A DNA stretch of 64,000 nucleotides from Kiritimatiellia bacterium (GCA_050950285.1 JBMNHG010000006.1:1-64000); one strand, 5' to 3'; shown: positions 10,575 through 56,762, counted from the first letter of the stretch. A program made the numbers and translations. The notes: a model not told the origin generated them from the letters alone.

Positions 10575-10961
10575 ATGAAAGAAAGGGCGACACGTATTTT
10601 TCCAGCAGCGACGCTTTCCATTATGATGTTGGCGCTTGGGGGATGCATGACACAGGACTATGCGGTCGGTATAAGGAACAGAACCGAAAAGATGATACAT
10701 GAAGCCAGTGTATCATACGATGGATTCCAGTCTGTTGGAGGCACAATTGGAGCAGGTCGCGCTTCTGTACACCATTCTCCAGAAGTTCCAATCCCGGAAG
10801 TTGCACAAGTCGAGTGGCAAACAGAAGACGGTGTTTTTCATCGGCAGAATGTCGAGGTTAAAAAAAACATGCCAAGAGGTTTTGGCGTGTATTGGTATTT
10901 GATGTTTGAAATCACGGACAGGGAGGTTGTTCTCCGCTTTTTAGAAGACAGGGGGCAATAA
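10575..10961 (+). CDS. Lipoprotein, putative immunity protein (diverged tandem copy 2)
   Basis: Highly similar to 10092..10487 and preceded by a duplicate of the last codons of the toxin gene (about 10515-10550). Confidence 0.8.
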   Translation: MKERATRIFPAATLSIMMLALGGCMTQDYAVGIRNRTEKMIHEASVSYDGFQSVGGTIGAGRASVHHSPEVPIPEVAQVEWQTEDGVFHRQNVEVKKNMPRGFGVYWYLMFEITDREVVLRFLEDRGQ

Positions 10962-11029: not shown

Positions 11030-14000
11030 ATGAATGGTGCAGTTAAAAATCCTAGCAAGCTTCATGCCATAGTGGAATTCTGTGGCGGGTGGCGATTTCG
11101 CATTGTGTTCGTGTGCATTTTCAATTGCACCTACGATGCAGTGGGATATGTGAATGCGCTCGGCTTCGCGGCGTCCGAGACGACGACGTACCCCGACGGC
11201 ATCGGCGACCACGTTGTCCACGTCGACCGGCGCGGGGTTCGCACGGTCACGACGCGCACGTCGCACGCCGACCGCGAGGAGAGCGTCACCCTGACGTTCT
11301 CGCCGGCGAACCCCGACGTTTGCGTCGTGGCGAGCACGAACATCGCCTACCGGAACGGGCGTTCCATCGCCATCCGAAGCTGGGACGGCGGCTGGACGCG
11401 CGAAACCTCGTGGAGCGACTACGCCGCCGACGGGACGCGGCGCGCCTTCTCCGTCACCGAGGCGTCGGATTCGCCGGGCGCGATCACGAATCAAATCGCC
11501 CACGGCGACTTCCTCGGGCGGACGGTGGCGACGCTGAGGCCCGGCGCCGCAGGCGCCTGGCTCGTCACCTCGAACGCCTACGACGGCGCGACCTCGCGCC
11601 TGGTTCGCTCGGAAACGACCGGACAGCCCGCCACGACCTACCTCTACGACGAGCGCGGCGAGATGGCGGCGACCGTCCAAAGCGGCGTCGAGACCGCGTC
11701 GGAAACCCGCTACGAGAACATCGGCGAAGCATGGTGGCGGGTGGACGTCCGCAGCACGGCGCGCGGGGGCGTCACCAACGCCGTCGCGACGACCCGCCGC
11801 CAGTTGACGGGGCTGTCCAACGCCCTGCGGAGCCGCACGGTGAACACCGGCCCGAACGGCTCGACGACGACGGAATCGGGCAGCTACAACCCGCAGACTT
11901 GCGAACTGACGATGGTTCGCGCAACCGATTCGGCAACGCCATCCGCCACCGTCTCGAAGTTCGGGCGTTCAATTCGCCGCGAGACGCTGCGCGAAACCGT
12001 TTACAACTACTTCGACCCGCTCGGGCGCGTTGCATACTCGGAAACGCGCGACCCTGAAACGGGCGTCTATTCCCATTTCCGCTGGTCGGGACTCGACGAG
12101 TCCGACAACGAGACCCACTACGGCATTTATTATTACGACGACGATCTGCACGTCACCGGATCGAGAACCTTCGACGCCTTCGGCCGCGAAACGTCCCACA
12201 CCGACACGTTCGGCAACACCGTGACAACGACCTACGACGCTCTCGGGCGTCCGGTTGCCGCCACCGGTGCGACCTACCCCGTGGCCTACGGGTACGACGC
12301 CGCCGGCCGCACGACCGCCCTCGCCACCGCCCGAGGCAACGCCGCCGGCTTCGCCGCCCTCGCCGTCCAGCTTGCCGGAGGCGCGTCCCTCGCATCCCTT
12401 GCGTCCCCTGCGTCCCTCGATCTCACCGCCTGGAACTACGACCACGCCACCGGACTTGCCACCAACAAGGTCTACGCCGACGGATCAGCCGTTTCCTACG
12501 CCTACACCCCCGACGGCAAGCTTTCTGCTCGCACCTGGGCGCGCGGCCTCGCCACAACCTACGCCTACAACCCCGACGGCTTGCTCACCGCCACCACCTA
12601 CAGCGACAACACGCCGGACATCGTGCTGACATACGACCTCTTCCAGCGCCCTGCTTCCGCCTCCAACGCCGTCGCGCGATACGCCTACCAGAACAGCCAC
12701 CTCGGCACCGCCACCAACGAGACGGCCATGGTTGGCGGCGACACCGCGACCCTGGCCCGTACCCTGGACAACCGCCACCGCCTGGCGGAACTGCGCAGCG
12801 GCAATGCCGCCCCCGTCCATTACGGCTACGACTCCGAAAGCCGTCTTTCCACCGTCTCGAATGATACCTTTTCGGCAAGCTACGCATATACTGATGACGC
12901 CTGGGACGCCGGATACACCATCACGCAGACCAACGGGATAGTTCTCTCCCGTACCGTCATCCGCGACCGGTACCGCCGCCACCTTGTCACGGTCATCACC
13001 AACAGCGCCAGCGGCGTGCCGCACAACCCGCTGGCCTACACCTACGACCTCCTCAACCGCGTCACGTCACGAAACGCCGACACCTTCGACTACAACGCCA
13101 GAAGCGAAGTCACTTCCGCCATCATCCAGCCCGCCCACACCAACCGCTACGCCTTCGACAACATAGGCAACGCGCTGTGGGCCTCGCTTAACTCCGTCAC
13201 GAACATCTACACCGCCAACGAACTGAACCAGTATTTCCTGATTTCCAATCATGTCAATCATGTCAATCCTGTCCAAATTTCTCCCGTATACGATTTAGAC
13301 GGCAATATGACATGGGACGGGCGTTTCAGCTATGCGTATGATGCCGAGAACCGCCTCGTCGCCGCCTATTCCAACGGCCTGTGCGTAGTCTTCAACGCCT
13401 ACGATCATCTTAGCCGCCGCGTGTTGAAAATCTCACGCGGAGGCGCGGAGACACGGGGATTTGTTTATGACGGCTGGCTGCCGGTTCTCGAAATCGTCGC
13501 TACCGCCGCGGGAGTGACCACCAACCACTACGTCTGGGGCAAAGACCTATCCGGCACGCTCCAGGGCGCGGGCGGCGTCGGTGGTTTGCTGGCGGTACAG
13601 ATGGGCGGCACATGGTACTTCCCGTTCTACGATAACAACGGGAATATCACGGCCTATGCCGATAAAACCGGTTCTATCGTGGCGGAATATGTTTATGATG
13701 CCTTCGGTGGTACCATAGCCCAATCCGGCAGTATGGCGGATGCCTTCGCCCATCGTTTCAGCACTAAATACTACGACTCCGAAACGGGCATCTACTACTA
13801 CGGCTACCGATTCTACTCCCCTGAACTTATGAGGTGGCTGAACAGGGATCCGATTCAAGAGGAAGGCGGTTTCAACGTATATGCGTTTTGCGAGAATGAC
13901 GCAAGGAACTCATTTGATGTTTTCGGACTTCAGAGCAAACCAAAAGTCCAATGTTCTAAAAAAGACAGTCCAATTTCATTTCGTTTTGATGGAAAAACTT

Positions 14001-14509
14001 TAAGTACAACAGGTTTTAGTTTGGATGCGGTGTCAGGACGTCCAATACGTGAGACAAACACATCCTGGGTCTCAACAGATACATTTTTCGGCATTCCTGT
14101 ATATGGAGGGATTGAGCGAACAACAGAGTATGATTACTCCGTAGAGCGTCAGAAACTCAAAAATGTCGGGCCTGTTCCGAAAGGAAGTTATTGGATTAAC
14201 GTGAATGAAGGAAGAACCCCAATAACTAGTCCATACAGCCACATCGTCAAATCTTCGGGGTGGGGGAGCTATAGTTGGACTTTACATGTGGATCCTATGA
14301 CGGAAACATATGGACGAAGCGGTTTCTTTATACATGGTGGCGATAGATGGGGGTCTGCGGGATGCATCGACCTTCAATACGGAGACAGCAAATTCAGGGA
14401 CTTTTTGAAAGGCTTGTGTGACTGCTACATACCCATTGAGGTTGAGTATCCAACACCGAATGTCCAAAAAACGGAACGTCATGTCTCTTGGTATCTCTTC
14501 ATGTTTTAA
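11030..14509 (+). CDS. Orphan Rhs cassette with a C-terminal Tlde1/DUF2778 (L,D-transpeptidase-fold) toxin
   Basis: Rhs homology begins at about 11150 (ASETTTYPDGI matches ASETTSYPHGI of Rhs1). The core ends WLNRDPIQEEGGFNVYAF...FDVFGL. The tip has AVSG, GPVPKGSYWI and YGRSGFFIHGG...GSAGCIDL. Confidence 0.88.
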   Translation: MNGAVKNPSKLHAIVEFCGGWRFRIVFVCIFNCTYDAVGYVNALGFAASETTTYPDGIGDHVVHVDRRGVRTVTTRTSHADREESVTLTFSPANPDVCVVASTNIAYRNGRSIAIRSWDGGWTRETSWSDYAADGTRRAFSVTEASDSPGAITNQIAHGDFLGRTVATLRPGAAGAWLVTSNAYDGATSRLVRSETTGQPATTYLYDERGEMAATVQSGVETASETRYENIGEAWWRVDVRSTARGGVTNAVATTRRQLTGLSNALRSRTVNTGPNGSTTTESGSYNPQTCELTMVRATDSATPSATVSKFGRSIRRETLRETVYNYFDPLGRVAYSETRDPETGVYSHFRWSGLDESDNETHYGIYYYDDDLHVTGSRTFDAFGRETSHTDTFGNTVTTTYDALGRPVAATGATYPVAYGYDAAGRTTALATARGNAAGFAALAVQLAGGASLASLASPASLDLTAWNYDHATGLATNKVYADGSAVSYAYTPDGKLSARTWARGLATTYAYNPDGLLTATTYSDNTPDIVLTYDLFQRPASASNAVARYAYQNSHLGTATNETAMVGGDTATLARTLDNRHRLAELRSGNAAPVHYGYDSESRLSTVSNDTFSASYAYTDDAWDAGYTITQTNGIVLSRTVIRDRYRRHLVTVITNSASGVPHNPLAYTYDLLNRVTSRNADTFDYNARSEVTSAIIQPAHTNRYAFDNIGNALWASLNSVTNIYTANELNQYFLISNHVNHVNPVQISPVYDLDGNMTWDGRFSYAYDAENRLVAAYSNGLCVVFNAYDHLSRRVLKISRGGAETRGFVYDGWLPVLEIVATAAGVTTNHYVWGKDLSGTLQGAGGVGGLLAVQMGGTWYFPFYDNNGNITAYADKTGSIVAEYVYDAFGGTIAQSGSMADAFAHRFSTKYYDSETGIYYYGYRFYSPELMRWLNRDPIQEEGGFNVYAFCENDARNSFDVFGLQSKPKVQCSKKDSPISFRFDGKTLSTTGFSLDAVSGRPIRETNTSWVSTDTFFGIPVYGGIERTTEYDYSVERQKLKNVGPVPKGSYWINVNEGRTPITSPYSHIVKSSGWGSYSWTLHVDPMTETYGRSGFFIHGGDRWGSAGCIDLQYGDSKFRDFLKGLCDCYIPIEVEYPTPNVQKTERHVSWYLFMF

Positions 14510-43805: not shown

Positions 43806-44996
43806 GTGCCGACCTTCTCCATCACGGACCTCCCCCCCGAAGCGGCATGCCGCGAATCGTTCCTCGATGGCGGAATCGAGGTGCTCTCCCGCTCCGGCCT
43901 GCATCCCGTGGAACGGGCGCTGCTCGGCGTCTCCGCGCGCTTCGCGCCGGCGGCGCGCCACCTGGTCACCGGGAATCGAACGGGCGTCCTCCCGCTCGCC
44001 CTGCATTCCCTTGCGCCGTCCTCCTCCGTCGTCGCCCACGATTTCGACCTCCACCACCTCCGCGCGGTGGCCCGGAACCTCGCCAGGAACGGCATGCCGC
44101 AGGAGGACTTCCCGCGAACCCCCTTCGTTCAATCCACCACCCCCCTCGCGCTGTCGTGCCTGGACCGGCTTCCGGACGGCCCCTTCGATGTCGCGTGGTT
44201 GCAGGCCTCCCGGCGCGACACCGCGGCCGAAGTCGCCCGGGCGTGGCTCCAGGCCCTCCACGGCGCGCTGCTCGAAGGCGGCAGGTGCGTGGTGGCGGTA
44301 GACGGCCCCATCGCGTGGATGCAGGAGACGATGCGGGGCGTCTTCGGCAAGGTCTCCGTCCTGCCGCCCCGCGACGACGCAAGCGTGCTGGTGGCGCGCC
44401 GCGCCGGCGGGCTGCGGAAGCGGCGCTCCTTTTCCGCCACCTTCGAGGCGACCCTTCCGGACGGCCAGCCCGCGATGACCTTCACAACGATCCCGGGCGT
44501 CTTCGCCCACCGGCGCCCCGACGCGGGCGGACTCGCCCTGGCGGAGGTCGCCGCCCGGCGGATGGGAAAGGTCGACCGCCTCCTCGACCTCGGATGCGGA
44601 TGCGGGCTCGTGGGACTGCTCCTCGCGCGGCACGCCGGACACGTCGCCCTCGTCGATTCCGATGCCCGCGCCTTCGCCGCCACCCTCGCCAATGCGGAGG
44701 CAAACGGACTGGCCGACCGTTGCACGGTGGTGCTGGACGACGAAGGATTCGGCGGAGGGAGCCCCTTCGATGTCGTCGTGGGCAATCCTCCCTACTACTC
44801 CGACTTCGCCATCGCCGGACGCTTCATCCGCGAGGCGGGCGAGGTGCTTCGCCCCGGCGGCCTCGCTTTCATGGTGGCCAAGAACGCCCGCCAGCATGCG
44901 GAAATGCTCGAGTCCTCCGTCGGGCCGTGCACCATCGAACACCGGCGCGGATACCAAGTGGCCGTTGCCGTGCGCAGGAGCGACGGACCGCCATGA
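43806..44996 (+). CDS. Class I SAM-dependent methyltransferase, RsmC/RlmG-like two-domain protein
   Basis: PGVFAHRRPDAG, LDLGCGCG and VVGNPPYY, with a degenerate N-terminal MTase-like domain. Confidence 0.85.
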   Translation: MPTFSITDLPPEAACRESFLDGGIEVLSRSGLHPVERALLGVSARFAPAARHLVTGNRTGVLPLALHSLAPSSSVVAHDFDLHHLRAVARNLARNGMPQEDFPRTPFVQSTTPLALSCLDRLPDGPFDVAWLQASRRDTAAEVARAWLQALHGALLEGGRCVVAVDGPIAWMQETMRGVFGKVSVLPPRDDASVLVARRAGGLRKRRSFSATFEATLPDGQPAMTFTTIPGVFAHRRPDAGGLALAEVAARRMGKVDRLLDLGCGCGLVGLLLARHAGHVALVDSDARAFAATLANAEANGLADRCTVVLDDEGFGGGSPFDVVVGNPPYYSDFAIAGRFIREAGEVLRPGGLAFMVAKNARQHAEMLESSVGPCTIEHRRGYQVAVAVRRSDGPP

Positions 44997-45760
44997 TCGC
45001 CGCCACCGACGCCATTGCCTTGCGCATCCATCCCTTCTCGAACACCTCGCACATGGTGACGTGGCTCTCCCGCGAGTTCGGGAGGATTTCCACCTCGATC
45101 AAAGGGGCATGCCGCCCCAAGAGCTTCTTCCTGGGCCAGTACGACGTCGGGGCGACCTGCCAGCTGCTGTTCTACCGGCGGGGGAGCGACGGCGTTCATC
45201 CCGCCCGGGAATGCTCCCCGATACGACGTCGCGAAGGACTGCGCGAGGATTGGCGGAAGGCGGCCGCGGCGGGCTACGCCTGCGACTTCGCCGCCCGTCT
45301 CGCGCAACCGCTCCTCGAAGCGCCGGACCTCTTCGCCTTGCTGGAAGAGACGCTGGACCGGCTGGAGCAGGGCCAACGCGCCCCCGCCATCGAAGTCATG
45401 GCCTTCGAATTCGCGGCCCTTCGCCTGGCGGGCTTCACGCCCAACCTCGAGCTCTGCGAGGGATGTTCCGGCGTGGGGGGCACCCAGTGCCGCTTCGCCC
45501 TCAACGCCGGCCGCCCCGCCTGCCACCGGGCGCCGCCCGCGCCCGGCGAACCCACCGTGATGGTCCCTCCCGACGTCCTTCAAGCGCTCCTCGATTTCAC
45601 CCGGAACCCCGCCTGCGGCCTCGCGGATTCCTGGTCCGACCCCCAAATCCAACTCGGCCTGAACCGCTTCCTCTCCCTTTTCATCGGCTGCCACCTCGAC
45701 GTGCCGCCAGGAATACGGCGCGCCGCCTTCGAATGGATGGCCTTCAATCCGCGCCGATAG
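44993..45760 (+). CDS. recO: DNA repair protein RecO
   Basis: TDAIALRIHPFSNTSHMVTWLSREFGRI...KGACRPKS, FEFAALRLAGFTPNL and Cys residues. Confidence 0.88.
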   Translation: MIAATDAIALRIHPFSNTSHMVTWLSREFGRISTSIKGACRPKSFFLGQYDVGATCQLLFYRRGSDGVHPARECSPIRRREGLREDWRKAAAAGYACDFAARLAQPLLEAPDLFALLEETLDRLEQGQRAPAIEVMAFEFAALRLAGFTPNLELCEGCSGVGGTQCRFALNAGRPACHRAPPAPGEPTVMVPPDVLQALLDFTRNPACGLADSWSDPQIQLGLNRFLSLFIGCHLDVPPGIRRAAFEWMAFNPRR

Positions 45761-45804
45761 CGCTGCGGCGCTGTTTTCAGGACGGGCTGTCCATCGAGGG
45801 CAAG

Positions 45805-48235
45805 CCCCGTGGCGTGGTCGTAGTTCCAGGCGGTGAGATCGAGGGACGCAGGGGACGCAAGGGACGCGAGGGACGCGCCTCCGGCAAGCTGGACGGCGAG
45901 GGCGGCCGGCGGCGGCGTACCCGTAGGCCGCGCCGGTGGCGGCAACCGGACGCCCGAGGGCGTCGTAGGCGGTCGTCACGGTGTTTCCGAGGGCGTCGGT
46001 GCGGGACGTTTCGCGGCCGAAGGCGTCGAAGGTTCTCGATCCGGTGACGTGCAGATCGTCGTCGTAATAATAAATGCCGTAGTGGGTCTCGTTGTCGGAC
46101 TCGTCGAGTCCCGACCAGCGGAAATGGGAATAGACGCCCGTTTCAGGGTCGCGCGTTTCCGAGTATGCAACGCGTCCGAGCGGGTCGAAGTAGTTGCAAA
46201 CGGTTTCCCGCAGCGATTCGCGTTCAATCGTGCGACCGAACTTCGAGACGGTGGTGGATGGCGTCGCCGCATCGGTGGCGCGAACCGTCGTCACCTCGCA
46301 AGTCTGCGGGTTGTAGCTGCCCGACTCCGTCGTTGTCGAGCCGTTCGGGCCGGTGTCCACCGTGCGGCTCCGCAGGGCGTTGGACAGCCCCGTCAACTGG
46401 CGGCGGGCCGTCGCGACGGCGTTGGTGATGCCCTCGCTTGACGTGTTGCGGACGTCCACCCGCCACCATGCCCCGCCGATGTTCTCGTAGCGGGTTTCGG
46501 AAGCGGTCTCGACGCCGCTTTGGATGGTCGCCGCCATCTCGCCGCGCTCGTCGTAGAGGTAGGTCGTGGCGGGTTGTCCGGTCGTTTCGGTGCGAACCAG
46601 GCGCGAGGTCGCGCCGTCGTAGGCGTTCGAGGTGACGAGCCAGGCGCCTGCGGCGCCGGGCCTCAGCGTCGCCACCGTGCGACCGAGGAAGTCGCCGTGG
46701 GCGATTTGATTCGTGATCGCGCCCGGTGAAGCAGCGGGATGCCGGGGGCGTCCGTGTCGAAGCGGGTGGCGGTCGAGACGGCGTTGCCGGGGTCGCCGAA
46801 AGCGGCGTCCGGGGCGCGGGCGCGGACCGTCTTCACGGTCGCGAAGGCGCGGTCCACCGTGTCCGTGCCGACGGTGTGGATGAACCAGGTGCGTCCGATG
46901 CACGTCGCCGCGCCGTCGCGGACGAGGTGGCGCGACTCGGTGCGGACGGAATCGAGGGCGGCGAGCGGATTGGAATCGCCCGCCAGCGGCGCGTAGTCGG
47001 AGACGGTGGCGATGGCGGCCAGGCCGGGGTGATCGGACAGATCGGAGAGATCGGACGGGGCGGCCCAGTTCGCAAGCAGCCAGGGGACCTCCGAGCCGTC
47101 GAATTGGTCGAGGCGCAATATCTCGCGGCCTTCGTCGTCCCAGGCCTGGTAGCTCCTGGGTCGCGACTCGCCCCAAACGAGGCGGGGGCGTCCGTTGCGG
47201 CGGGGATGGGCGTCGTCCGTCCAGTAGGTGGCGTGGTCTTCGACCAGGCCGGGCTCGCCGTCGGGCTCGAGGCCGAGCGTCGCGTGGTAGGTCTGGCGGA
47301 GCGTCGCGTCCTGCCCGCAACCGAAGCGCCGGGACTCGGCGATGTCCCGCGAGAGGATCGCGCCGGCGGCGTCGCGCACGATGCGCTCCTCGCGGAGGAC
47401 GCCGTGGGGGCCGTCGTCGAGCGTGTCGGTGCGAAGCACCTGCCCGGAAGTCTGCGCGATATTGTCGAAGCACGCCCAGGACGGGGATGGGTACGGAGCC
47501 CCATCCCCACGATACATGACGTTGTCCCGGCGGCTGATCCTCTTGAACGCGATTTCACCCGGACTGCCGCCGACGTTGGCGATCTCCCAGACGTGCTCCA
47601 GTTCGTCGCCGGCGGTCTTGCGGACGGTGATCCGGACGCCATGGGCGATCGGTTCGACGACGACGGTGCGGCCTCGGGCGTCGGAGCAGGCGATGGTGCG
47701 GGTTCCGCCGACGGCGCTTTCGGCGACGGACGCGACCCAGCCGTACGCGGGCGGCAGCGACGAACGCAGCGCCTTGTCGACGGCGTCCACGTCGCCGTCG
47801 AAGTCGACATCGGGGTAGAGCCGCTGGCTGAGAACCGTGAAGGCGTTCGTGATGACGCGCGTCCCGCCGTCCCAGGCATATTCCCAGAGGATCTTCTCCG
47901 CCCCCGGCGAGGGGCTCTTCCCCAGCCCTTCGACGTAAATGGCTTCCCCGGCGGAAATCGATCCGGAGAACGATGCGCGCTTGCGGGCGTCGCGCCACAG
48001 CGCCAGACGCGAAGAGCAGGATTGCAGCGTCGCATAAGGCGTCGGCGGCTGGTGCTCGAGGCAGGGGCAGCAGGTGCCGTCGAACCGTCCCAAAGGATAA
48101 TAGGCGACAAGATTAGGCGGTTCAAGCCAGTCGGGATGCTCATCGAGCAAACGACAACGGGTGACGCGTCGCCGGGCTTCCCGAGGCAGCGAAGCGCCGT
48201 CGCCCTGGAATCGGAAGCAAAGCCATTTGGGATGG
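45805..48235 (-). pseudogene. Mosaic toxin pseudogene made of segments homologous to the non-Rhs toxin, Rhs1 and Rhs2
   Basis: 48235-47725 matches 54111-53472 (with an internal deletion), 47725-46730 matches 4965-5965, and 46728-45805 matches 11471-12450. Confidence 0.88.
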
Positions 48236-48266
48236 TTCTTTCGTGCGATAGATGACGCTTGCACGC

Positions 48267-49385
48267 TTACTCCGAAGGCTTCTTGCCGGACGCTTCTTCC
48301 TTTTTGGCGGCAGCCGCCCGCTCCTGCATGTACCCCACCAGTTCCGACGTGTCGTAGTCAATAAAGGCGTTGTTGCGTATTGCCTCATATGTGTAGCCTG
48401 ATGCACCCGGGTGGATCCCTAGTTGCCTTTCATGCGGCTTCCATGCCTCATAAAACCCTTCCTGTATCTCAGATTCGGGAAACGACCCCGTTGGGCGGGA
48501 CGGTTTCAAGGGGAAGCGTCCGATCGTCTTCCTGAATATCAGAAGGTTTTGAACGCGATCCATCATCGTGCTTTCATAGCCCATGATGCAAAACATATAA
48601 TGGAGTTTCTGATTCCACTTTGTGGCAAGCGTGTAGGGACGAGGCGAGATCTCATCCTCGCAATAGAACGCGACTTCTTTGGAAAAGTTTTTCCCCTCCG
48701 AGAAATAGTGCGGATAATGCCCCTCTTTTTCCTTGTACGCAAGCCACGCCTTCCGAAAATGCCCATGCCATTCGACCGCCAGATCGTCCTTTGTCTTCGC
48801 ACGGTACTGGTGCGGGGACTCCTCGTTCAAAATGTTGCGACGCACATGCAGCTTGCTTTCCTCTGTCTCAAACCGGGCGAGGCGCGCCTCGATTCCCTCC
48901 ACGGAGAAATCGAGATCCGCAATCAGGTGCCCAATGGGAATGCAGGCCAGGTGCTCGACCCGCCTTCTGATGGCATGGTTCCCATAGCCGCCGGGACGTC
49001 CCGCCCAGTCGGAAAAATCGAGCAGCCGGTCGGCCTGGCTCGCCCGTTCCCCGGTGCTCGCAGGCGAAAGAATGCGCAGGGCCTCCTCATCCACGGCCTT
49101 GACAAGCTCCAAGCCGAAATCGCGCTTCGCCTGTTCAAGTTGGATGCGCTTCGTGGATTCCCGGGGGAGCCAGTCCACCCAGCATTGGGAATGGATTTTC
49201 GGCGCGTCCCACCGGTTGGATTGCGCAACGGCGAAAAACCCCCGAAAGCCGGAGTCGGCAAGCGTTTTCCGCTGGATTGCGAGCGCCTTCATCTCTTCTT
49301 CATAGCCGGGCTCGGCCGATGCGGCGCAAAGCGGGGGCAATGCGGCGAGCGCGGTGCAAACGAGTGCTTTCAACAGATGTTTCAT
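48267..49385 (-). CDS. Secreted protein, putative immunity paralogue C
   Basis: Signal peptide MKHLLKALVCTALAALPPLCAA. Tandem paralogue of the next two genes. Alternative start at 49409. Confidence 0.8.
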   Translation of the reverse strand: MKHLLKALVCTALAALPPLCAASAEPGYEEEMKALAIQRKTLADSGFRGFFAVAQSNRWDAPKIHSQCWVDWLPRESTKRIQLEQAKRDFGLELVKAVDEEALRILSPASTGERASQADRLLDFSDWAGRPGGYGNHAIRRRVEHLACIPIGHLIADLDFSVEGIEARLARFETEESKLHVRRNILNEESPHQYRAKTKDDLAVEWHGHFRKAWLAYKEKEGHYPHYFSEGKNFSKEVAFYCEDEISPRPYTLATKWNQKLHYMFCIMGYESTMMDRVQNLLIFRKTIGRFPLKPSRPTGSFPESEIQEGFYEAWKPHERQLGIHPGASGYTYEAIRNNAFIDYDTSELVGYMQERAAAAKKEEASGKKPSE

Positions 49386-49411
49386 GAAGCGAGGTGTTGC
49401 CGTTTGCATGT

Positions 49412-50554
49412 CTATTCAGAAGGCTTCTTGCCGGACGCTTCTTCCTTTTTGGCGGCAGCCGCTTGCTCCTGCATGTACCCCACCAGTTCCGACGTGTCGT
49501 AGTCCATGAAAGCGTTGTTGAGAATCTGGGTGTAGCTTCTTGCAGCTCCGCTTCCTTTTTTGCCAAACTTTTTCTCATGCGGCATCCATGCTTCATAGAA
49601 AGCTTCGCGAACTTCTTCCCCCTCAAACGACCCCAATGGACGGGACGGTTTCAGAGGAAACCGCCCGATCATCTTCCTGAACAACAGGAGGTTATGGACA
49701 CGATCCGTGATCGCGTCGGTTTTCCCACGGACACAAAATAGAAAATGACGTTTCTGGCTCCATTTTGTGGCAAGCGTGTAGGGGCGAGGCGAGGATTCAT
49801 CCTCACAATAGAAGGAGATATGGCGTGGGAGATCTTTGCTTTCTTCATGATCGTAAGGGTAGCGCCCCCTTTCATCCTTGAATGCAAAAGCCGCCTTCCG
49901 GAAATGTCCATGCCATTCGACCGCCAGATCGTCCTTTGTTTTCGCACGGTACTGGTGCGGAGCTTCCTCGTTCAAAACATCGACCTGCATGCGCACCCAG
50001 CCCTGCTCCGTCTCAAGCCGGGCAAGGCGCGCCTCGATTTCCTCCACGGGAAAATCCAAGTCCGCAATCAGGTGCCCAATGGGAATGCAGGCCAGATGCT
50101 CGACCCGCCACTTGATGGCGAGGTTTCCATAGCCGCCGGGGCGTCCCGCCCAGCCGGAAAAATCGAGCAGCCGGTCGGCCTGGCTCGCCCGTTCCCCGGT
50201 GCTCGCAGGCGAAAGGACGCGCAGGGCCTCCTCCTCCACGGCCTTGACAAGCTCCAGGCCGAAATCCCGCTTCGCCTGCTCGAGTTGGATGCGCTTCGTG
50301 GATTCCCGGGGGAGCCAGTCCACCCAGCATTGGGAATGGATCTTCGGCGCGTCCCACCGGTTGGATTGCGCAACGGCGAAAAACCCCCGAAAGCCGGAGT
50401 CGGCAAGCGTTTTTCGCTGGATTGCGAGCGCCTTCATCTCTTCTTCATAGTCAGGCTCGGTCGATGCGGCGCAAAGCGGGGGCAATGCGGCGAGCGCGGT
50501 GCAAACGAGTGCTTTCAACAGATGTTTCACGAAGCGAGGTGTTGCCGTTTGCAT
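49412..50554 (-). CDS. Secreted protein, putative immunity paralogue B
   Basis: Same N-terminal part as copies A and C with a divergent central region. Start is ATG 50554 or GTG 50530. Confidence 0.8.
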   Translation of the reverse strand: MQTATPRFVKHLLKALVCTALAALPPLCAASTEPDYEEEMKALAIQRKTLADSGFRGFFAVAQSNRWDAPKIHSQCWVDWLPRESTKRIQLEQAKRDFGLELVKAVEEEALRVLSPASTGERASQADRLLDFSGWAGRPGGYGNLAIKWRVEHLACIPIGHLIADLDFPVEEIEARLARLETEQGWVRMQVDVLNEEAPHQYRAKTKDDLAVEWHGHFRKAAFAFKDERGRYPYDHEESKDLPRHISFYCEDESSPRPYTLATKWSQKRHFLFCVRGKTDAITDRVHNLLLFRKMIGRFPLKPSRPLGSFEGEEVREAFYEAWMPHEKKFGKKGSGAARSYTQILNNAFMDYDTSELVGYMQEQAAAAKKEEASGKKPSE

Positions 50555-50556
50555 GT

Positions 50557-51675
50557 CTACTCCGAAGGCTTCTTGCCGTCCGCCTCTTGTTTCCTGGCGG
50601 CAGCCGCTTGCTCCTGCATGAACCCCACCAGTTCCGACGTGTCGTAGTCCATGAAGGCGTTGTTGAGAATCTGGGTGTAGCTTCTTGCAGCCCCGCTTCC
50701 CTTTTTGCCAAACTTTTTCTCATGCGGCATCCATGCTTCATAGAAGGCTTCGCGGACTTCTTCCCCCTCAAACGACCCCAATGGACGGGACGGTTTCAGA
50801 GGAAACCGCCCGATCGTCTTTCTGAACAACAGGAGGTTTTGAACGCGATCCATCATCGTGCTTTCATAGCCCATGATGCAAAACATATAATGGAGTTTTT
50901 GATTCCACTTTGTGGCAAGCGTGTAGGGACGAGGCGAGATTTCATCCTCGCAATAGAACGCGATCTCTTTGGGAAAGTTTTCCCCCTCCGCGAAATGATG
51001 CGGATAATGCCCTTCTTTTTTCTTGTACGCAAGCCACGCCTTCCGAAAATGCCCATGCCATTCAACCGCCAGATCGTCCTTTGTCTTCGCACGGTACTGG
51101 TGCGGGGACTCCTCGTTCAAAATGTTGCGACGCACACGCAGCTTGCTTTCCTCTGTCTCAAACCGGGCGAGACGCGCCTCGATTTCCTCCACGGGAAACT
51201 CCAGATCCGCAACCAGGTGCCCAATGGGAACGCAGGCCAGATGTTCGACCCGTCTTCTGATGGCATGGTTTCCGTAACCGCCGGGACGTCCCGCCCAGCC
51301 GGAGAAATCGAGCAGCCGGTCGGCCTGGCTCGCCCGTTCCCCGGTGTTCGCAGGCGAAAGAATGCGCAGGGCCTCCTCATCCACGGCCTTGACAAGCTCC
51401 AAGCCGAAATCGCGCTTCGCCTGTTCAAGTTGGATGCGCTTCGTGGATTCCCGGGGGAGCCAGTCCACCCAGCATTGGGAATGGATCTTCGGCGCGTCCC
51501 ACCGGTTGGATTGCGCAACGGCGAAAAACCCCCGAAAGCCGGAGTCGGCAAGCGTTTTTCGCTGGATTGCGAGCGCCTTCATCTCTTCTTCAAAGTTGGG
51601 CTCGGTCGATGCGGCGCAAAGCGGGGGCAATGCGGCGAGCGCGGTGCAAACGAGTGCTTTCAACAGATGTTTCAT
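50557..51675 (-). CDS. Secreted protein, putative cognate immunity paralogue A
   Basis: ATG 51675 lies 25 nt after the stop of the 1438-aa gene, and a signal peptide is present. Confidence 0.8.
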   Translation of the reverse strand: MKHLLKALVCTALAALPPLCAASTEPNFEEEMKALAIQRKTLADSGFRGFFAVAQSNRWDAPKIHSQCWVDWLPRESTKRIQLEQAKRDFGLELVKAVDEEALRILSPANTGERASQADRLLDFSGWAGRPGGYGNHAIRRRVEHLACVPIGHLVADLEFPVEEIEARLARFETEESKLRVRRNILNEESPHQYRAKTKDDLAVEWHGHFRKAWLAYKKKEGHYPHHFAEGENFPKEIAFYCEDEISPRPYTLATKWNQKLHYMFCIMGYESTMMDRVQNLLLFRKTIGRFPLKPSRPLGSFEGEEVREAFYEAWMPHEKKFGKKGSGAARSYTQILNNAFMDYDTSELVGFMQEQAAAARKQEADGKKPSE

Positions 51676-51700: not shown

Positions 51701-54700
51701 TCAATAGGAATTGTATGTAAAGGGGGCGTTGTAGGTTTTTCGGATGTGGATGGTGTGCCGGAAAATCCGTCCGCGGCTTTTACGATTGGCCGAGGCTCCC
51801 GTCCCCCTGCCAAAGCCGAGCTGCAACGCGGCGGCGGCGGCGGACTTCGCCCCGTCCTCGTAGTTGAAGTCGTAGAGGTCTTGGATGTTGCATTCAAAAT
51901 CGACCGAGGTCACGACATACTGGGTTCCCGACAGCCAGGAATGCTGCTTCTGTATGGTGAAGCGGTATCGCGGATTGACCACGCGGCCGCGTCCGACGGT
52001 CGCGAAGGCGTCGAAGTCGTCAAAAGCCGGCCTGCCCGTTAAAAATTCGGCGGCCAGTGCATACCATCCGCCATAGTCGTCGCTGTTGCCGACGCGCTGC
52101 GTCGAGGGGACGACCCAGTTGACCGATGTTTGCGGGCTGAGGCTTGCGAAGAGGTTCGTCGCCCCTTCGCAAGGCATGTCATACCATCCGCCATCCTGCG
52201 GGAAAACGACGGTCGCATTGTTGGTGGCATTTGCCAAAACGGCTTCCGCGGCATCCTTGACGCAGGCGTTGTAGAAGGCGTGGAGCCGAGTTCCCGTTTC
52301 CGTCGGAAATTCAATGTACTGCGCCCCGGCCGTGTAGCTTTTCAACGCAAAAGGCGTCCGGTTAGCCATGAACTGCGAGACCTTTGACTCTTCGTCCCAG
52401 ATAAAATGTGAAATAGCCGCCGTTCCATTGTCGTCGAATGTCGCGCCGCTGTTGTGCGTCAGCCATTCCGTGAAGCCAGCCCCGTCCTCGAATGCGTTGA
52501 TGGGAACGCTGTTTGACGAACTGGGCTGCATGTCTGGCGCGATTCGTGCTACATCCCCGTTGTAGAGAAACAGCGCCAGGAAAGACCGGGCGTTGGGGGC
52601 GACAAGCGACGGCGTGCTTTGTCCCATGAAATGGACGAAGCCATCGATGTCTTCAAGATGCTCAGCGTACATTTCCTTCGAGATTCCGCGAAGGGTCGCG
52701 CAGCGCGGACTGTCGTCCGACTGTCGGCGATAGACCTCCAGCGGGAACGTCTGCTCGTGTTCATCGACAAGCCCGTTGCCGTTGACATCGAATCCGGCGC
52801 GGATTTCATAGGTCACCGTCTGTGCGTCGCCAGGGCCGGGGATGTTCATGTCCACGGCGGAACCAACCGCGGCCGGGACGGGGGCGTCGCTTCCGGCGAC
52901 TTTATTCTCTCCGTCGTAGGCGGCGCAGACGAAAAGGCTGCGCATGCCGGCAGGTTGGATGTCCAAGTCCAGGGAGACGCGGTATTTTCCGTCGGCAGGG
53001 TCGCCGACGACATAGAGGTGGTTGCGCGGAACGGCGTAGGACTCGTCGCCCACAACTTCCATGACCTCCGCATTCCCCGTGCTGTCGTCCTTGCGAGTCG
53101 GATTGAATATCTGGTTGACCTTGTTTGCCGTCTCCCACATCAGGTCAAGGGAAACATCCACCGCCGTCATCGTGAGCGACGCGCCGCAGTCGATGTTGGT
53201 GGCGCTGCCCGTGCCGAAGAAGCTGCTGGCCAGATGGGCCGTGCCGCCGCGGATCGCCTCGACGTAGAAGGTGTCGGTGCCGGAGGCGTCCCACGAAACG
53301 CCGCCGACGCCGTTGGTGACGGTCTGTCCGCAAACCAGCATCGGGCTTGCGCCGGGGGCGGGGTTCGCACTCCGCCACACGCGGAAGCCGCCGTGGCCGG
53401 AAAGCGCCAGCACATGCGCGCCGGGAAGGCCGACGTCCGTGCGAAGCTGCACCTTGCGGAAGGCGTTGCTGGCGACGGACACGACCCAGCCGTGCTCAGG
53501 CGGCAGCGACGAACGCAGCGCCTTGTCGACGGCGTCCACGTCGCCGTCGAAGTCGACATCGGGGTAGAGCCGCTGGCTGAGAACCGTGAAGACGTTCGTG
53601 ATGACGCGCGTCCCGCCGTCCCAGGCATATTCCCAGAGGATCTTCTCCGCCCCCGGCGAGGGGCTCTTCCCCAGCCCCTCGACGTAGATGGCTTCCCCGG
53701 CGGAAATCGATCCGGAGAACGATGCGCGCTTGCGGGCGTCGCGCCACAGCTCCAGACGCGAGGAGCGAGATCGAAGCGTCGCATAAGGCGTCGGCGGCTG
53801 GTGCTCGATGCAGGGACAGCAGGTGCCGTCGTAACGCCCGAGCGGACAGACGGGCATCAGGTCGTTGTCGGCGACGGGCATCGACGAATCGTTTTTGTCT
53901 TCCGAGACGCTGGCGTCGTCGTCGTCGTTGTTGACCGGCAGGGCCGTCCCGGCCGGGCCGCCGGGAACGCACCCGCAAAGGCAGTCCGGCGAAAGCATGG
54001 GCTCCAGCCAATCGGGAGGGTTGTCGACGAAGCGGCATCGGGTGACGCATCGCCAGATTTCCCGCGGCAGCGATGCGTCATCGTCCTGGAATTGGAAGCA
54101 AAGCCATTTGGGATAGCCGCTATCGGAATAAGGGACGGTGAATGTGTTCCCGGAATGGGTGGTGGAGTCGCCATCGAACCGCCACGTCGAAGTCCCTGCA
54201 AGCGCTGCGGGCTTGACGGACGCCGTGGCGCGGATGTCCTCCCGGCTGTGGAAGCAGAGCGGGTCGGGCGAAATGGCAATGGTGGGCTGGACGATCATCC
54301 CCGACGGCGTCAGGCGTCCGCCGGGAAGATCGCCCGGGGGCGCAGGCGCCCGGCGTCCGCGCGTGGCGGCCGGGACGAAGACGGGGTGCGGATCACGGAA
54401 GAACGCCCAGGCCGAGCCGAGCGTCATATCGAGCGACACGGTGGCGTCCACGGGGGCGAAGAGCGCGACCGGATGCACGACGCCCTCGCGGAGCCAGAGG
54501 GTGCGGGTCGCGCCGGCCGGGGCGCCGGCGGGGAAGACGACGGTGCGGTCGCCGACGGCGACCGAAACGGGGGCGCTGGGGGACGCCTCGACGGAAATGG
54601 CGGCCTGGAAGATCGACGGGGCGCCGTCCGCGGCGGCGCCGGGCGAGTCCGAAGAGGACCAGGGCGAGGTGCCGGCCATCGTCTCCAGCCAGTCCGCCCA

Positions 54701-56017
54701 GCCGTCGCCGTCGCTGTCGATGTCGTCGTTCACGGCGGGGTCGAGACCGTGGAGCAGCTCGTCGAGCAGCGAAAGGCCGTCGCCGTCGGCATCCGAATTC
54801 GCGTCGTCCCAGACGAACGGATTCGGGTCGATCCCGTCCGGCAGGCTGTCGCCGTCCGTGTCGGGATTCAGCGGGTCAGTTCCAAGCGCGATCTCCACGT
54901 CGTCGTCGAGGCCGTCGCCGTCGGAGTCGCGGAGCTGCGGGTCGGTGTGGTAAAGGAAAACCTCGTCCGGCGTGGCGAGGCCGTCGCCGTCCGGGTCGGG
55001 GTTCGCGGGGTCGTAGCCGCCGAAGGCCGTCCAGCGAAGCGAGAACTTGGGCGCGTTCGAGACGACCGCGCAGAGCGGCGTGGTCAGGACATTGCCACCC
55101 TCGAGACGGTACAGCGTGGCGCACAGGTGGTTCGAGGCGGTGCAGGCGTGCGCCGGCGTGCCGATCAGCGCCGTCTCGCCACCGCCCCCGGCCTGCGCAC
55201 CAACCACAAAATTCGTCATTCGTAATTCGTAATTCGTCATTCCGCTTAGATCGTAGCGGAAGACGAAATCGCCATCGGGGAAGAGCTCGGCCTGGAAGGA
55301 GACCGGGGCGTTCGTGGCGCGGTTCAAAAGCGCATTCTGCCAGGTGAAGCGGGCGGAGCCGGAATCGGTCGTGTCCGACCAAAACAGGGAGTTCGCGACG
55401 GGTGGCCGGCGGCTGGCGATTTTGTCCCAGTTCGCTTCGGGTGGGATGCCGAGGAGCGTGTGGAGCGGGGCGAGGAAGGCGATGGGGGAGCCGTCGGGCA
55501 TCGGTTGCGCCGCGGGCGAGGACTTCGGGCGGTCGAAGGCGAGCGTGCCCGACGAGGACACGTAGACGGAATCGTAGCGGTTCGTGCCGAGGGGGAAGCC
55601 GTCTTCGAGCGCCATCCAGAAGCCGTCCTCCGACGCCCCACGCTTGCGCCAGCGGTCGTGGACGACCGCGTTCGCCGGCGCCGACAGGTCGAAGGCGTCG
55701 TTCGTGGAAGCGTCGGACAGCGCGAAGCCCGCGAGCCGCTGGGCGTCGGTGAACTGGACGAGCGAGGATATGGCCGGCGGCGGCGAGCGCTGCGGCGCCT
55801 CCGGCCCCGGGTTCCTTTCGGGCTTCGAGCCGCCGTAGATGACGAGGGCGACCAGGAGGCTCAAGAGCACTGCGCGGAAGGCGGCGGGCTGCCGCCGGAA
55901 CGCGGCCAGCTTCCGCCGGGAAGGCGCGGAGCCGGCGATCCGCCTGGCGACAAGCAGCAGGATGGCGCCGGACGTCAGCCCCGTCAAAACGATTCCAGTC
56001 AACGTCAGGGCATCCAT
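51701..56017 (-). CDS. 1438-aa non-Rhs putative polymorphic toxin sharing the N-terminal module of Rhs1
   Basis: Two hydrophobic segments ending IYGGSK. W...G..ED.FW, LGTNR...VSSSGTL.F..PK, FLAPL and FQAELFP.GDFV.RYDLS are shared with 2380... DxDGDG repeats, Cys-rich segments and a lower-GC C-terminal region ending ...IQDLYDFNYEDG... Confidence 0.8.
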   Translation of the reverse strand: MDALTLTGIVLTGLTSGAILLLVARRIAGSAPSRRKLAAFRRQPAAFRAVLLSLLVALVIYGGSKPERNPGPEAPQRSPPPAISSLVQFTDAQRLAGFALSDASTNDAFDLSAPANAVVHDRWRKRGASEDGFWMALEDGFPLGTNRYDSVYVSSSGTLAFDRPKSSPAAQPMPDGSPIAFLAPLHTLLGIPPEANWDKIASRRPPVANSLFWSDTTDSGSARFTWQNALLNRATNAPVSFQAELFPDGDFVFRYDLSGMTNYELRMTNFVVGAQAGGGGETALIGTPAHACTASNHLCATLYRLEGGNVLTTPLCAVVSNAPKFSLRWTAFGGYDPANPDPDGDGLATPDEVFLYHTDPQLRDSDGDGLDDDVEIALGTDPLNPDTDGDSLPDGIDPNPFVWDDANSDADGDGLSLLDELLHGLDPAVNDDIDSDGDGWADWLETMAGTSPWSSSDSPGAAADGAPSIFQAAISVEASPSAPVSVAVGDRTVVFPAGAPAGATRTLWLREGVVHPVALFAPVDATVSLDMTLGSAWAFFRDPHPVFVPAATRGRRAPAPPGDLPGGRLTPSGMIVQPTIAISPDPLCFHSREDIRATASVKPAALAGTSTWRFDGDSTTHSGNTFTVPYSDSGYPKWLCFQFQDDDASLPREIWRCVTRCRFVDNPPDWLEPMLSPDCLCGCVPGGPAGTALPVNNDDDDASVSEDKNDSSMPVADNDLMPVCPLGRYDGTCCPCIEHQPPTPYATLRSRSSRLELWRDARKRASFSGSISAGEAIYVEGLGKSPSPGAEKILWEYAWDGGTRVITNVFTVLSQRLYPDVDFDGDVDAVDKALRSSLPPEHGWVVSVASNAFRKVQLRTDVGLPGAHVLALSGHGGFRVWRSANPAPGASPMLVCGQTVTNGVGGVSWDASGTDTFYVEAIRGGTAHLASSFFGTGSATNIDCGASLTMTAVDVSLDLMWETANKVNQIFNPTRKDDSTGNAEVMEVVGDESYAVPRNHLYVVGDPADGKYRVSLDLDIQPAGMRSLFVCAAYDGENKVAGSDAPVPAAVGSAVDMNIPGPGDAQTVTYEIRAGFDVNGNGLVDEHEQTFPLEVYRRQSDDSPRCATLRGISKEMYAEHLEDIDGFVHFMGQSTPSLVAPNARSFLALFLYNGDVARIAPDMQPSSSNSVPINAFEDGAGFTEWLTHNSGATFDDNGTAAISHFIWDEESKVSQFMANRTPFALKSYTAGAQYIEFPTETGTRLHAFYNACVKDAAEAVLANATNNATVVFPQDGGWYDMPCEGATNLFASLSPQTSVNWVVPSTQRVGNSDDYGGWYALAAEFLTGRPAFDDFDAFATVGRGRVVNPRYRFTIQKQHSWLSGTQYVVTSVDFECNIQDLYDFNYEDGAKSAAAAALQLGFGRGTGASANRKSRGRIFRHTIHIRKTYNAPFTYNSY

Positions 56018-56026
56018 GTCCTGTCC

Positions 56027-56662
56027 CTACCTCAGAATGAAAATGGCGGCGTCGTCGGAAAGCCTGGCCGTGATCGTCTCGTTTCGTGCGCCGGTTCCCC
56101 GGGCGACGGCCTCGATCCGGTTCCAATCCGTCGAGAACATCCAGGCGGGCGGCGGGGAAAGGTCGAGACCCGGGAAGGCGAGCGGCGTCGTGCCGTCCGA
56201 CAGCCCGAGCGCGCGCGGCGAGCCGTCGGCATCCAGGCGCATCTCGAAGGAAAGCGTCTTGCGCGTCTCCGTTCCGGCGGGATCGGCGGCAACGCGTTGC
56301 ACGGCCGCGTCGGAGGCGATGAACCACCGCCCGCAGTCCCAGCCCAGCGTCAGGCCGGTTTCCCCGGCGGAGAGGCTGCCCTCGCCGGACTCGTCCCTGC
56401 CGAAAGCCACTTGGACGTTGTTCGAGGGCGTGGCGTCGAACTGGAGCGAGACCGTGAACCGCCGCGTGTGTTCGCCCCACGCCCGCATGGCGACGTTGGT
56501 CGAGACCTCCATATCGGCAAAAGCGGGCGCGGGAAGGCGCGGCACGTCGAGCGCCGGCGCGGTCGCGGCAAGCGCCGCGGCGGCACAGGCGGCAATGGCC
56601 CGGAGAAAAACGGCGCGCCGCCGGGACCGCGGCCCAAGGGAGGACATGCAGCCTGCATCCAT
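56027..56662 (-). CDS. Small secreted partner protein encoded directly upstream of the toxin gene
   Basis: Signal peptide (RRRAVFLRAIAACAAAALAATAPA). Paralogue at 2071..2375. Stop lies 9 nt before the toxin ATG. Start is 56662 or 56647. Confidence 0.8.
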   Translation of the reverse strand: MDAGCMSSLGPRSRRRAVFLRAIAACAAAALAATAPALDVPRLPAPAFADMEVSTNVAMRAWGEHTRRFTVSLQFDATPSNNVQVAFGRDESGEGSLSAGETGLTLGWDCGRWFIASDAAVQRVAADPAGTETRKTLSFEMRLDADGSPRALGLSDGTTPLAFPGLDLSPPPAWMFSTDWNRIEAVARGTGARNETITARLSDDAAIFILR

Positions 56663-56762
56663 GGTGGGGAGCGTAGCACGGGCCAACGGCGGCGGCAACC
56701 CATTATTTGCCGTATTGGTTCAATGGTTCACTATGGTGCGCCCGCAAGCAGGGCGACGACGT

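Follow-up and report, generated by a model that had tools for sequence, protein, structure and literature searches.

Polymorphic toxins are classed by their N-terminal delivery parts, and the bacteria of the Planctomycetes–Verrucomicrobia–Chlamydiae (PVC) group are poorly charted in that scheme. What serves as such a part in this lineage is the question raised by a stretch of 64,000 nucleotides (nt) from a Kiritimatiellia bacterium (hereafter the window; GCA_050950285.1, JBMNHG010000006.1:1-64000), which comprises the first 64 kb of contig C6 of a 4.05-Mb genome (G000) that is 99.35% complete. On the minus strand, at positions 51701 to 56662, a small gene directly precedes a giant gene (locus B), and the same gene order recurs on the plus strand near the contig start (locus A). 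A preliminary description had proposed that the two loci belong to a lineage-specific, surface-tethered toxin delivery class, consisting of a dedicated partner gene and a shared, membrane-anchored N-terminal module that carries either Rhs or non-Rhs cargo. Here, the reading that we favor, with modest confidence, is that a constant head and stalk carry exchangeable cargo, that a partner with a lectin fold forms the membrane-proximal structural or anchoring base, and that the cargo in this genome consists mostly of polymorphic toxins.

Two loci with a shared head

The features of locus B are as follows.

56030..56662, minus strand: partner B, about 211 amino acids (aa), putatively Sec-exported, predicted concanavalin A (ConA)-like lectin fold (AF2 [AlphaFold2] pLDDT 80)
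51701..56017, minus strand: giant protein B, 1438 aa, with a head, a conserved middle and a variable C-terminal domain; no YD repeats
55829..56002, minus strand: two hydrophobic helices of giant protein B (residues 6-24 and 45-63), with a basic loop between them and GGSKP after them, from a hydropathy scan and relatives
54983..55765, minus strand: NIDO-like (nidogen-like) beta-sandwich head domain (residues 85-345), predicted partner docking site
54638..54982, minus strand: TSP3-type calcium-binding repeats (residues ~346-460; PF18884, E 6.7e-6, 26.3 bits against a cut-off of 25)
53198..54640, minus strand: middle region (residues ~460-940), Cys-rich, from blastp of segments against the collected homologues
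51704..53200, minus strand: variable C-terminal domain (residues 940-1438), candidate toxin or enzyme

The open reading frame (ORF) of partner B extends from 56027 to 56698 on the minus strand, with a likely start at 56662 (MDAGC...) and an alternative TTG start at 56698; its product ends in ...DDAAIFILR, and the gap to the giant ORF is 9 nt. At locus A, the corresponding features are these.

2072..2375, plus strand: partner A, last ~100 codons only, cut by a junction at 2071, ending in ...DGAVILLR, with a 1-nt insertion at 2304
2380..10067, plus strand: giant gene A (type A), with head, Rhs cage and Tle1-like tip, in several frames
9297..10064, plus strand: Tle1-like phospholipase tip, after the Rhs core (PF09994, E 1.3e-37)

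The partner stop here lies 4 nt before the giant-gene ATG at 2380, and both loci thus agree with the preliminary description, in which a small protein lay within 10 nt of each giant ORF. The two giant N-termini are 43% identical over 322 aa (BLASTP, E 5e-53). Partner B shares 40% identity over 48 aa with the partner fragment of locus A (E 2e-8) and 53% over 217 columns with a full-length type-A partner from elsewhere in the genome. Beyond the head, the two proteins part company as described: locus A has RHS/YD repeats (PF05593, E 8e-13 and 1e-15; TIGR01643 also matched) and an Rhs-associated core (TIGR03696) at E 5.5e-22 in ORF 7824-10064 (residues 413-491), with E 7e-21 for the same model in locus L011, whereas the 1438 aa of giant protein B contain no RHS, YD or Rhs-core repeats by Pfam and NCBIfam. 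The TSP3 repeats are common to both (PF18884, E 1.8e-6 in A), and in B this part also gave weak matches to the CglD/MtsD TSP3 region in the NCBIfam and Pfam scans.

A search with the head (tblastn) located 18 copies in this genome. Sixteen of them are of type A, with near-identical N-termini (MGLLQS[IM][RH]HWMFAGACLL...); locus B and a divergent copy on contig C11 make up the rest. Among the type-A genes, four encode intact Rhs proteins (2460-2541 aa) and two encode intact non-Rhs proteins (1192 and 1266 aa) with differing, real-looking C-termini; the remaining copies are broken by frame changes or contig ends. At the DNA level, the type-A copies are 94-98% identical over 4-8 kb. With four intact Rhs proteins, two non-Rhs type-A proteins and locus B, the proposal that one N-terminal module carries either Rhs or non-Rhs cargo holds.

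The head as a divergent NIDO-like domain

The plan of the head is constant: a basic loop flanked by two hydrophobic helices, then a [GA]xxK(P) motif, a beta-sandwich of ~220 aa and TSP3 repeats. The helix-loop-helix and the [GA]xxK motif (often G[GS][ST]KP) were present in all 18 non-GDSL sequences in which the region is present, including those from other genera, while a divergent subfamily carrying GDSL lipases has an ordinary signal peptide in place of the two-helix N-terminus. By the positive-inside rule, the head would be oriented with its N-terminus out, the loop in the cytoplasm and the rest beyond the inner membrane. We also considered that the first helix might be non-coding and that the true start might correspond to a plain signal peptide; this was dropped because helix 1, the basic loop and helix 2 are conserved as protein sequence in relatives from other genera. 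Twenty-six head domains were aligned (A2) for use in the hidden Markov model (HMM), hhalign and the AlphaFold model, and this alignment contains the motifs W..G..ED.FW, LGTNR, VSSSGTL.F, PK, MPDGS, FLAPL and FQAELFP.GDF..RYD. The motifs, the hydrophobic segments and the DxDxDG repeats named in the preliminary description are therefore borne out by the alignment, hydropathy and PF18884.

The AlphaFold model of the head is nearly all beta (pLDDT 83, pTM 0.85). No match to it in the PDB was returned by Foldseek at E<=1e-3, and Pfam, run on single head sequences, detected TSP3 only. The relationship emerged from more sensitive comparisons. NIDO clusters stood at ranks 2 and 3 for the head in the Atlas (a language model; score 0.86). 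With hhalign, the A2 alignment matched four Pfam-positive NIDO sequences of the same phylum at 95.7% (E 9.7e-9, 115 columns) and the protein P0100 at 96.4% (E 1.4e-9), where the aligned residues 276-435 span the Pfam NIDO match at 298-368. In addition, the A2 HMM matched a site in a related genome (G045:C4:164713-165171, E 7e-12) that is also scored by the Pfam NIDO model. These profile methods, applied to small alignments, indicate that the head sandwich is a very divergent NIDO domain.

The head family comprises 225 representative clusters at E<=1e-30, and for 145 of the 150 best of these representatives the start of the head is at or before residue 175. Strong matches (E<1e-50) in a 301-genome sample of the phylum were confined to the same order; outside it, the phylum gave weaker matches, which may represent NIDO-like domains in general.

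The partner family and its predicted complex with the head

The partner family was aligned from 18 full-length members of different genomes, with a mean column identity of 40%. All 18 have a hydrophobic, signal-like segment at the N-terminus, directly followed by the motif VP.LP.P.FADTEVSTN, and further motifs are ATPSNNV.VAFG, GWD.G.WF and RG. The C-terminus (columns 236-244 of the alignment, A4) is hydrophobic and is closed by R or K in 18 of 18 members (AIFILR, VVFLLR, TILLLK). The model of the partner is a beta-sandwich (pLDDT 80) in which the last seven residues are unstructured. In Foldseek searches, this model retrieved Emp46/47, calreticulin, ERGIC-53, galectins and legume lectins (E ~5e-5, probability 1.00, TM ~0.5), and VIA-align gave 52 chains with Z>=8 and a top score of 11.7. 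As modeled, the partner thus has a ConA-like lectin/glucanase fold. Family databases gave little: Pfam yielded no lectin family, and its only matches, to DUF7151 in 4 of the 18 members, were weak and missed the cut-off (best E 5e-4); NCBIfam yielded no match. A wider search gave 586 clusters at E<=1e-3; a Pfam domain was found in none of the 120 best matches, and the few best matches with an organism name were all from Kiritimatiellia.

To our knowledge, no complex of a like kind has been solved. We modeled the mature partner (A4, residues 40-211) and the head (A2) as a complex, alongside three controls. The interface score ipSAE was 0.84, 0.83 and 0.86 for the pair and 0.00 for the three controls, with 90-92 contacts, at least 97% contact agreement across runs and a partner pLDDT of at least 83. 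Among solved complexes, 116 of 157 reached the pass mark for ipSAE, as did 2 of 215 mismatched pairs; with custom alignments, these rates are only rough. On the partner side, the predicted interface is made up of residues 48-52 (FADxE), 79-82 (PSNN), 109-110 and 188-190 (RG), and it holds D50, E52, N81 and G189, four of the seven invariant columns; on the head side, it is made up of residues 37-50 (W..G..ED.FW), 66-70, 79-85 and 106-116. The hydrophobic C-terminal tail of the partner lies outside this predicted interface. The association of partner and N-terminal domain that had been suggested from gene order is thereby favored by the model as well.

Linkage of partner and head across genomes

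If partner and head act together, their genes would be expected to remain adjacent beyond this genome. Among 41 genomes (G000 and 40 relatives), a head match was found in 18 and a partner match in 19. Outside G000, the partner lies directly upstream of the head on the same strand at 14 places in 11 genomes (G002, G004 with four places, G010, G014, G021, G022, G023, G028, G033, G034 and G040), the divergent GDSL subfamily included. The pair is kept at 30-80% protein identity in these 11 genomes, also with non-Rhs cargo, and the partner-to-head gap is 4-10 nt. The linkage predicted in the preliminary description is consequently found in other genomes.

Statements of absence, here and below, apply to the genomes sampled and searched. 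No adjacency was seen in six genomes with head matches (G009, G016, G017, G025, G036 and G039). In G017, both the partner and the head are found at the end of a contig. Only short pieces of the partner were matched in G016 and G025, one or more of them in each genome at the end of a contig, where most of the head matches are located too. The partner of G009 is on a different contig from the head, and in G036 a head is present and no partner was found. Some heads also have no detectable partner even in paired genomes (e.g., G033:C12 and G033:C14). At one further locus (L056, G023:C31, 2889-3572), the giant gene behind the partner has an AT-rich insertion in place of its NIDO-like domain, and we take the product of this insertion, by eye, to be a small protein like those of the GxxExxY family.

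Cargo and downstream genes

Identity among the four intact Rhs proteins of type A is 71-99% over residues 1-1000 and 61-89% over the body as far as the core, whereas in the tips beyond the core it is only 14-18% (14-24% when locus A and its type-A paralogues are taken together), so that the C-terminal polymorphism anticipated in the preliminary description is evident within a single genome. No Pfam toxin family was found in the tips of these four proteins or in the two non-Rhs forms. Giant protein B varies in a similar manner. Its residues 460-940 share 30-59% identity with proteins that end in protein-arginine deiminase (PAD), C39-like or B-like domains, and its residues 940-1438 were found only in P0004, P0015, a paralogue on contig C8 (32%) and an orthologue in G023, which is 41% identical to giant protein B over 1471 aa. 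Both giant genes in the window are followed by multiplied small genes.

50557..51675, minus strand: signal-peptide protein, copy 1 (~372-380 aa), candidate immunity protein
49412..50554, minus strand: signal-peptide protein, copy 2 (380 aa), candidate immunity protein
48267..49409, minus strand: signal-peptide protein, copy 3 (380 aa), candidate immunity protein
10092..10487, plus strand: lipoprotein, 131 aa, lipobox LGGC, candidate immunity to the Tle1-like tip
10575..10961, plus strand: lipoprotein paralogue, 128 aa, 77% identical to the 131-aa lipoprotein

The multiplied genes noted earlier are thus three tandem copies at locus B (mutual identity 78-86%) and two lipoproteins at locus A. Genes resembling that for the 380-aa protein (25-29% identity) follow the B-like tip both in G023 and on C8. 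After the two non-Rhs type-A loci on contig C2, a run of same-strand ORFs includes two of ~380 aa (382 and 372 aa), and tblastn of the 380-aa protein gave a match near these loci (C2:814490-815491, 27% identity). Locus B therefore combines a constant N-terminal part with a C-terminus that varies among homologues and a linked, co-varying downstream gene. By this architecture, it may be regarded as a polymorphic toxin in the broad sense, with a putatively toxic tip and neighbors that could serve as immunity proteins. Across the giant genes, the small exported or lipoprotein genes downstream have no family match and are candidate immunity genes; their signal peptide or lipobox would fit an action of the Tle1-like and Tlde1 tips on the envelope.

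The cargo of the wider family is not confined to toxins. Precomputed Pfam annotations of 91 head-profile homologues (proteins <=2000 aa) listed GDSL lipase in 8, PAD in 3, and peptidase M10, a C39-like domain and NIDO in 1 each, and RHS/YD-shell in 1 of the 91; the latter rose to 4 of 35 in a search admitting longer proteins. The PAD, GDSL, M10 and C39-like domains were verified by hmmscan. Among 31 long representatives, RHS occurred in 4, PAD in 3, an alpha/beta hydrolase in 1 and TSP3 in 18, while 11 had nothing recognizable. The part of the earlier proposal that made the head specific to toxins is therefore not upheld, given the PAD, GDSL lipase, alpha/beta hydrolase, M10 and C39-like cargo and an RHS share of 4 in 31.

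PAD (PF03068) was seen as C-terminal cargo in P0008, P0009, P0017, P0235, P0253 and P0272, and P0008 also has the PAD middle domain. In the GDSL subfamily, four relatives share a three-gene order, namely, a partner-like gene, a head/TSP3/GDSL gene (~925 aa) and a gene for a WG-repeat protein (~590 aa). Sites of this divergent subfamily are G000:C11 at about 369200-372700 and L048-L051.

Possible explanations

How a bacterium without a type VI secretion system (T6SS) deploys Rhs cages of 2500 aa is a question raised by these loci. The explanation that we favor would run as follows. The family, in our data concentrated in one order of Kiritimatiellia, would comprise giant envelope proteins exported by Sec. 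In each, a helix hairpin (N-terminus out, loop in, rest out) would be followed by the [GA]xxK(P) motif and the NIDO-like sandwich, with the TSP3 repeats as a stalk. The lectin-fold partner would dock onto the NIDO-like domain as a structural subunit, and the heterodimer would then act as a membrane-proximal base, holding or positioning the protein within the envelope, possibly via envelope glycans, with the cargo distal. Of the 18 head copies in this genome, most would carry polymorphic toxins together with exported candidate immunity proteins. We prefer a structural or anchoring role of the partner over that of a pilot or a target lectin because of its predicted docking at the N-terminal end, its conservation and the unrelated tips that it serves.

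Several observations weigh against this explanation. Any delivery model is weakest at the point where a 2500-aa Rhs cage would have to pass the outer membrane: with a hairpin in the inner membrane, such a protein would stay periplasmic, barring cleavage or an unusual envelope, and no obvious route out was found. The T6SS sheath protein TssC (PF05943) and PAAR (PF05488) had no match in the genome, and the only ShlB-type gene (C11:338899) is far from all loci. A shared transporter or protease was found in none of 40 flanking ORFs at the loci of 12 relatives, which held only unrelated families and restriction-modification genes. A GspD-like secretin gene does lie about 2 kb upstream of partner B, but genes for an RDD-family protein and a pseudouridine synthase stand between. 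The naming of the head is similarly open to challenge, as the best VIA-align match of its model (Z 5.2, supersandwich-type domains) is too weak to name a fold, and the Pfam NIDO model (PF06119) matched none of the 26 head members at E<=5 and had no match in the genome at E<=10. Binding of the partner to the NIDO-like head via the best-conserved motifs of both families is a prediction and not a measurement. Most of the cargo has no assigned function, and PAD and GDSL lipase are not classic interbacterial toxins. For the C-terminal domain of giant protein B and the 380-aa protein, phmmer and profile searches of PDB sequences gave a best E of 0.98, the Atlas had no usable match, and neither Pfam nor NCBIfam had a family.

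The state of the partner genes in G000 also counts here. They are full length at 5 loci, cut at locus A, and divergent but present on C11, whereas at 11 of the 18 loci the partner is a remnant of ~35-45 codons in which the signal-peptide start is joined to the last eight codons, ...DGAVIL[LP]R (e.g., C3:265675-265761, C8:754812-754898 and C2:806339-806428). Three of the four intact Rhs genes have a remnant only. The deletion seems to have been duplicated together with the toxin element. Contrary to the earlier proposal of a dedicated partner, the partner is thus not dedicated in cis, and any requirement for it must therefore be met in trans.

The same facts have been set against three other explanations. 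One, which is the reading of the preliminary description, is that the pair represents a dedicated trafficking class, in which the partner is a periplasmic pilot or chaperone, the head is an outer-membrane secretion signal read by a secretin or another pore, and the hairpin is cleaved at [GA]xxK(P). Tight conservation of the pair across genomes with gaps of only a few nucleotides and probable translational coupling would suit it, as would the N-terminal position of the head, which resembles that of trafficking domains, the conserved motif immediately past helix 2, the partner tail left free for a third contact, and the nearby secretin. Against these stand the loss of the partner at most loci here, differing upstream contexts among the type-A copies, and the lack of any transporter, secretin or protease conserved beside the loci of relatives; moreover, we know of no case in which the ConA-like lectin fold is a chaperone or pilot fold in bacterial secretion. 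We regard this explanation as unlikely. A two-component toxin, in which the lectin-like partner reads target-cell glycans and aims the cargo like the B subunit of an A-B toxin or a phage receptor-binding protein, would account for the fold, which is common to lectins, CBM40 modules and phage receptor-binding modules, and for partner and head having diverged in step (type B versus type A, 53% in the partner and 44% in the head within one genome). Yet docking is predicted at the membrane-proximal end, far from the cargo, and the family is conserved (mean column identity as given above, with invariant interface residues) instead of hypervariable, as arms-race binders often are. The same near-identical partner also serves heads with unrelated tips, and we consider such targeting decidedly improbable.

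The remaining explanation is that there is no functional coupling at all and that the small upstream ORF is a passenger of a recently duplicated Rhs element. The near-identity of the type-A DNA makes conservation within this genome uninformative on function, and the 11 remnants would be expected of a passenger. Conservation of the pair at 30-80% protein identity in other genomes, with non-Rhs cargo too, contradicts it, as does an interface prediction that passes against three controls and gathers the invariant residues of both families; we give it hardly any credence. A bolder argument is that the NIDO-like head and its partner constitute an undescribed device for trafficking and anchoring, which would bring very large proteins, 2500-aa Rhs cages among them, to the surface of a diderm PVC bacterium with no T6SS and no adjacent T5SS (type V secretion system) genes, with the hairpin and [GA]xxK(P) as a processing or sorting signal. 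This is tentative, and we hold it possible but doubtful; if true, it would add a further delivery class of polymorphic toxins and give the first functional partner for a NIDO-type domain. Surface-tethered delivery as such, which the preliminary description had put forward, is likewise an inference, and none of the loci has a conserved transporter gene at its side.

The gene for the GspD-like secretin (58798-61944, minus strand) is a 1049-aa ORF with Secretin, Secretin_N and N0 domains and a long N-terminal extension; no secretin gene was seen beside the loci of relatives.

Relation to known systems

The type-A proteins resemble Rhs/YD polymorphic toxins in their RHS repeats, TIGR03696 core, unrelated tips, small downstream genes, orphan fragments and nearby recombination remnants. 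Relatives of this kind include the T6SS-linked Rhs effectors and Sec-dependent forms such as WapA of Bacillus subtilis. They differ in that a PAAR, VgrG-type, SpvB, two-partner secretion (TPS) or LXG head is replaced by a two-helix anchor, a NIDO-like domain and TSP3, together with an exported lectin-fold partner, and in that the head also bears non-Rhs cargo, as at locus B. None of the giant proteins gave PAAR, TssC, TPS, LXG, MuF or SpvB signals; in particular, the TPS (haemagglutination activity) domain had no Pfam match in them, and no TpsB gene is adjacent. The earlier statement that no known N-terminal class is recognizable therefore stands with regard to PAAR, TPS, LXG, MuF and SpvB, and it does not stand insofar as the head is NIDO-like and the partner ConA-like.

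Zhang et al. (2012; PMC3482391) describe the polymorphic toxin layout as an N-terminal trafficking or anchoring part, a repeat stalk, a variable C-terminal toxin and immunity genes. The layout here is alike, and the proteins would fit the signal-peptide ('T2SS', type II secretion system) toxins with RHS repeats in the scheme of that article. From the 300,000 characters of it that were searched, the words 'nidogen' and 'thrombospondin' are absent; none of its listed classes combines a NIDO-like head with a ConA-like partner, and the PrsW class given there has an eight-helix peptidase domain, unlike the two-helix hairpin of the present family.

With NIDO domains (PF06119), the head shares profile homology over 115-157 columns, the motifs ...NG.l.F..., ...APf... 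and ...tFQa.L..dG...f.Y, and an extracellular location at the N-terminal end of large multidomain proteins. It differs in an additional N-terminal segment with W..G..ED.FW, which forms the predicted interface, and in falling below the Pfam threshold. We know of no function for the NIDO domain itself, and the assignment gives ancestry rather than mechanism. The predicted heterodimer gives NIDO, which is also present in animal matrix proteins, a candidate type of binding partner.

Two other systems invite comparison. In T6SS prePAAR-Eag effectors, a small accessory gene likewise stands just upstream of a giant, often Rhs, effector that starts with hydrophobic helices. In contrast, the accessory protein here has a signal peptide and a lectin fold and is predicted to bind a beta-sandwich rather than helices, and no prePAAR, PAAR or T6SS was found. 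Teneurins are alike in architecture only, with an N-terminal anchor, Cys-rich and calcium-binding spacers, a YD shell and a toxin-like C-terminal domain, and some head homologues carry the precomputed Pfam family TEN_YD-shell; no NIDO domain or lectin-like partner is known to us in teneurins.

In titles and abstracts, literature searches returned nothing on a NIDO-type head in polymorphic toxins, on the function of bacterial NIDO domains or on Rhs proteins of Kiritimatiellota. The toxin logic is thus familiar, while the head, the partner and their predicted complex have not been described before. Together, head and partner suggest that this lineage has its own means of mounting toxins and enzymes on the cell envelope, and the cargo of the head (tips, PAD, lipases and peptidases) is a source of uncharacterized toxin and enzyme domains and immunity proteins.

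Remnants, frameshifts and the contig start

Two further features in the window are broken elements.

44795..48264, minus strand: degraded chimera, a B-like middle region fused to a type-A Rhs body in several frames; orphan or recombination remnant
11030..14509, plus strand: orphan Rhs C-terminal fragment with a Tlde1 tip and no head, directly after the two lipoprotein genes

The B-like part of the chimera matches residues ~607-850 of giant protein B at 54% identity, which suggests recombination among these elements.

Seven insertions, at positions 2304, 2430, 2538, 2664, 2743, 2862 and 4827, set locus A apart from an intact paralogue (C2:213k). Six are of 1 nt and one is of 2 nt, and most fall in G/C runs. 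The inserted bases from 2304 through 2862 are missing from the short-read contigs of both DNA runs, which stem from other samples, although these contigs possibly derive from paralogues. The frameshifts are probably consensus errors at the contig end; a pseudogene is a possible alternative.

At position 2071, in the middle of the partner gene of locus A, GC content jumps from 32% (bases 1-2070) to 73%. In the short-read contigs of the two DNA runs, AT-rich pieces end or diverge at 2071, and GC-rich pieces start there with different sequence ahead. Because none of the listed pieces spans the junction, the start of contig C6 is probably chimeric. Coverage in the RNA runs X15 and X16 is restricted to the foreign AT-rich part and a few short fragments. 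The AT-rich segment contains an HTH_38 transposase-like ORF (139-894, minus strand) and a CARDB-like ORF from 1168 (plus strand). Contig C9 (5.9 kb, 34% GC) may be contamination like this AT-rich start.

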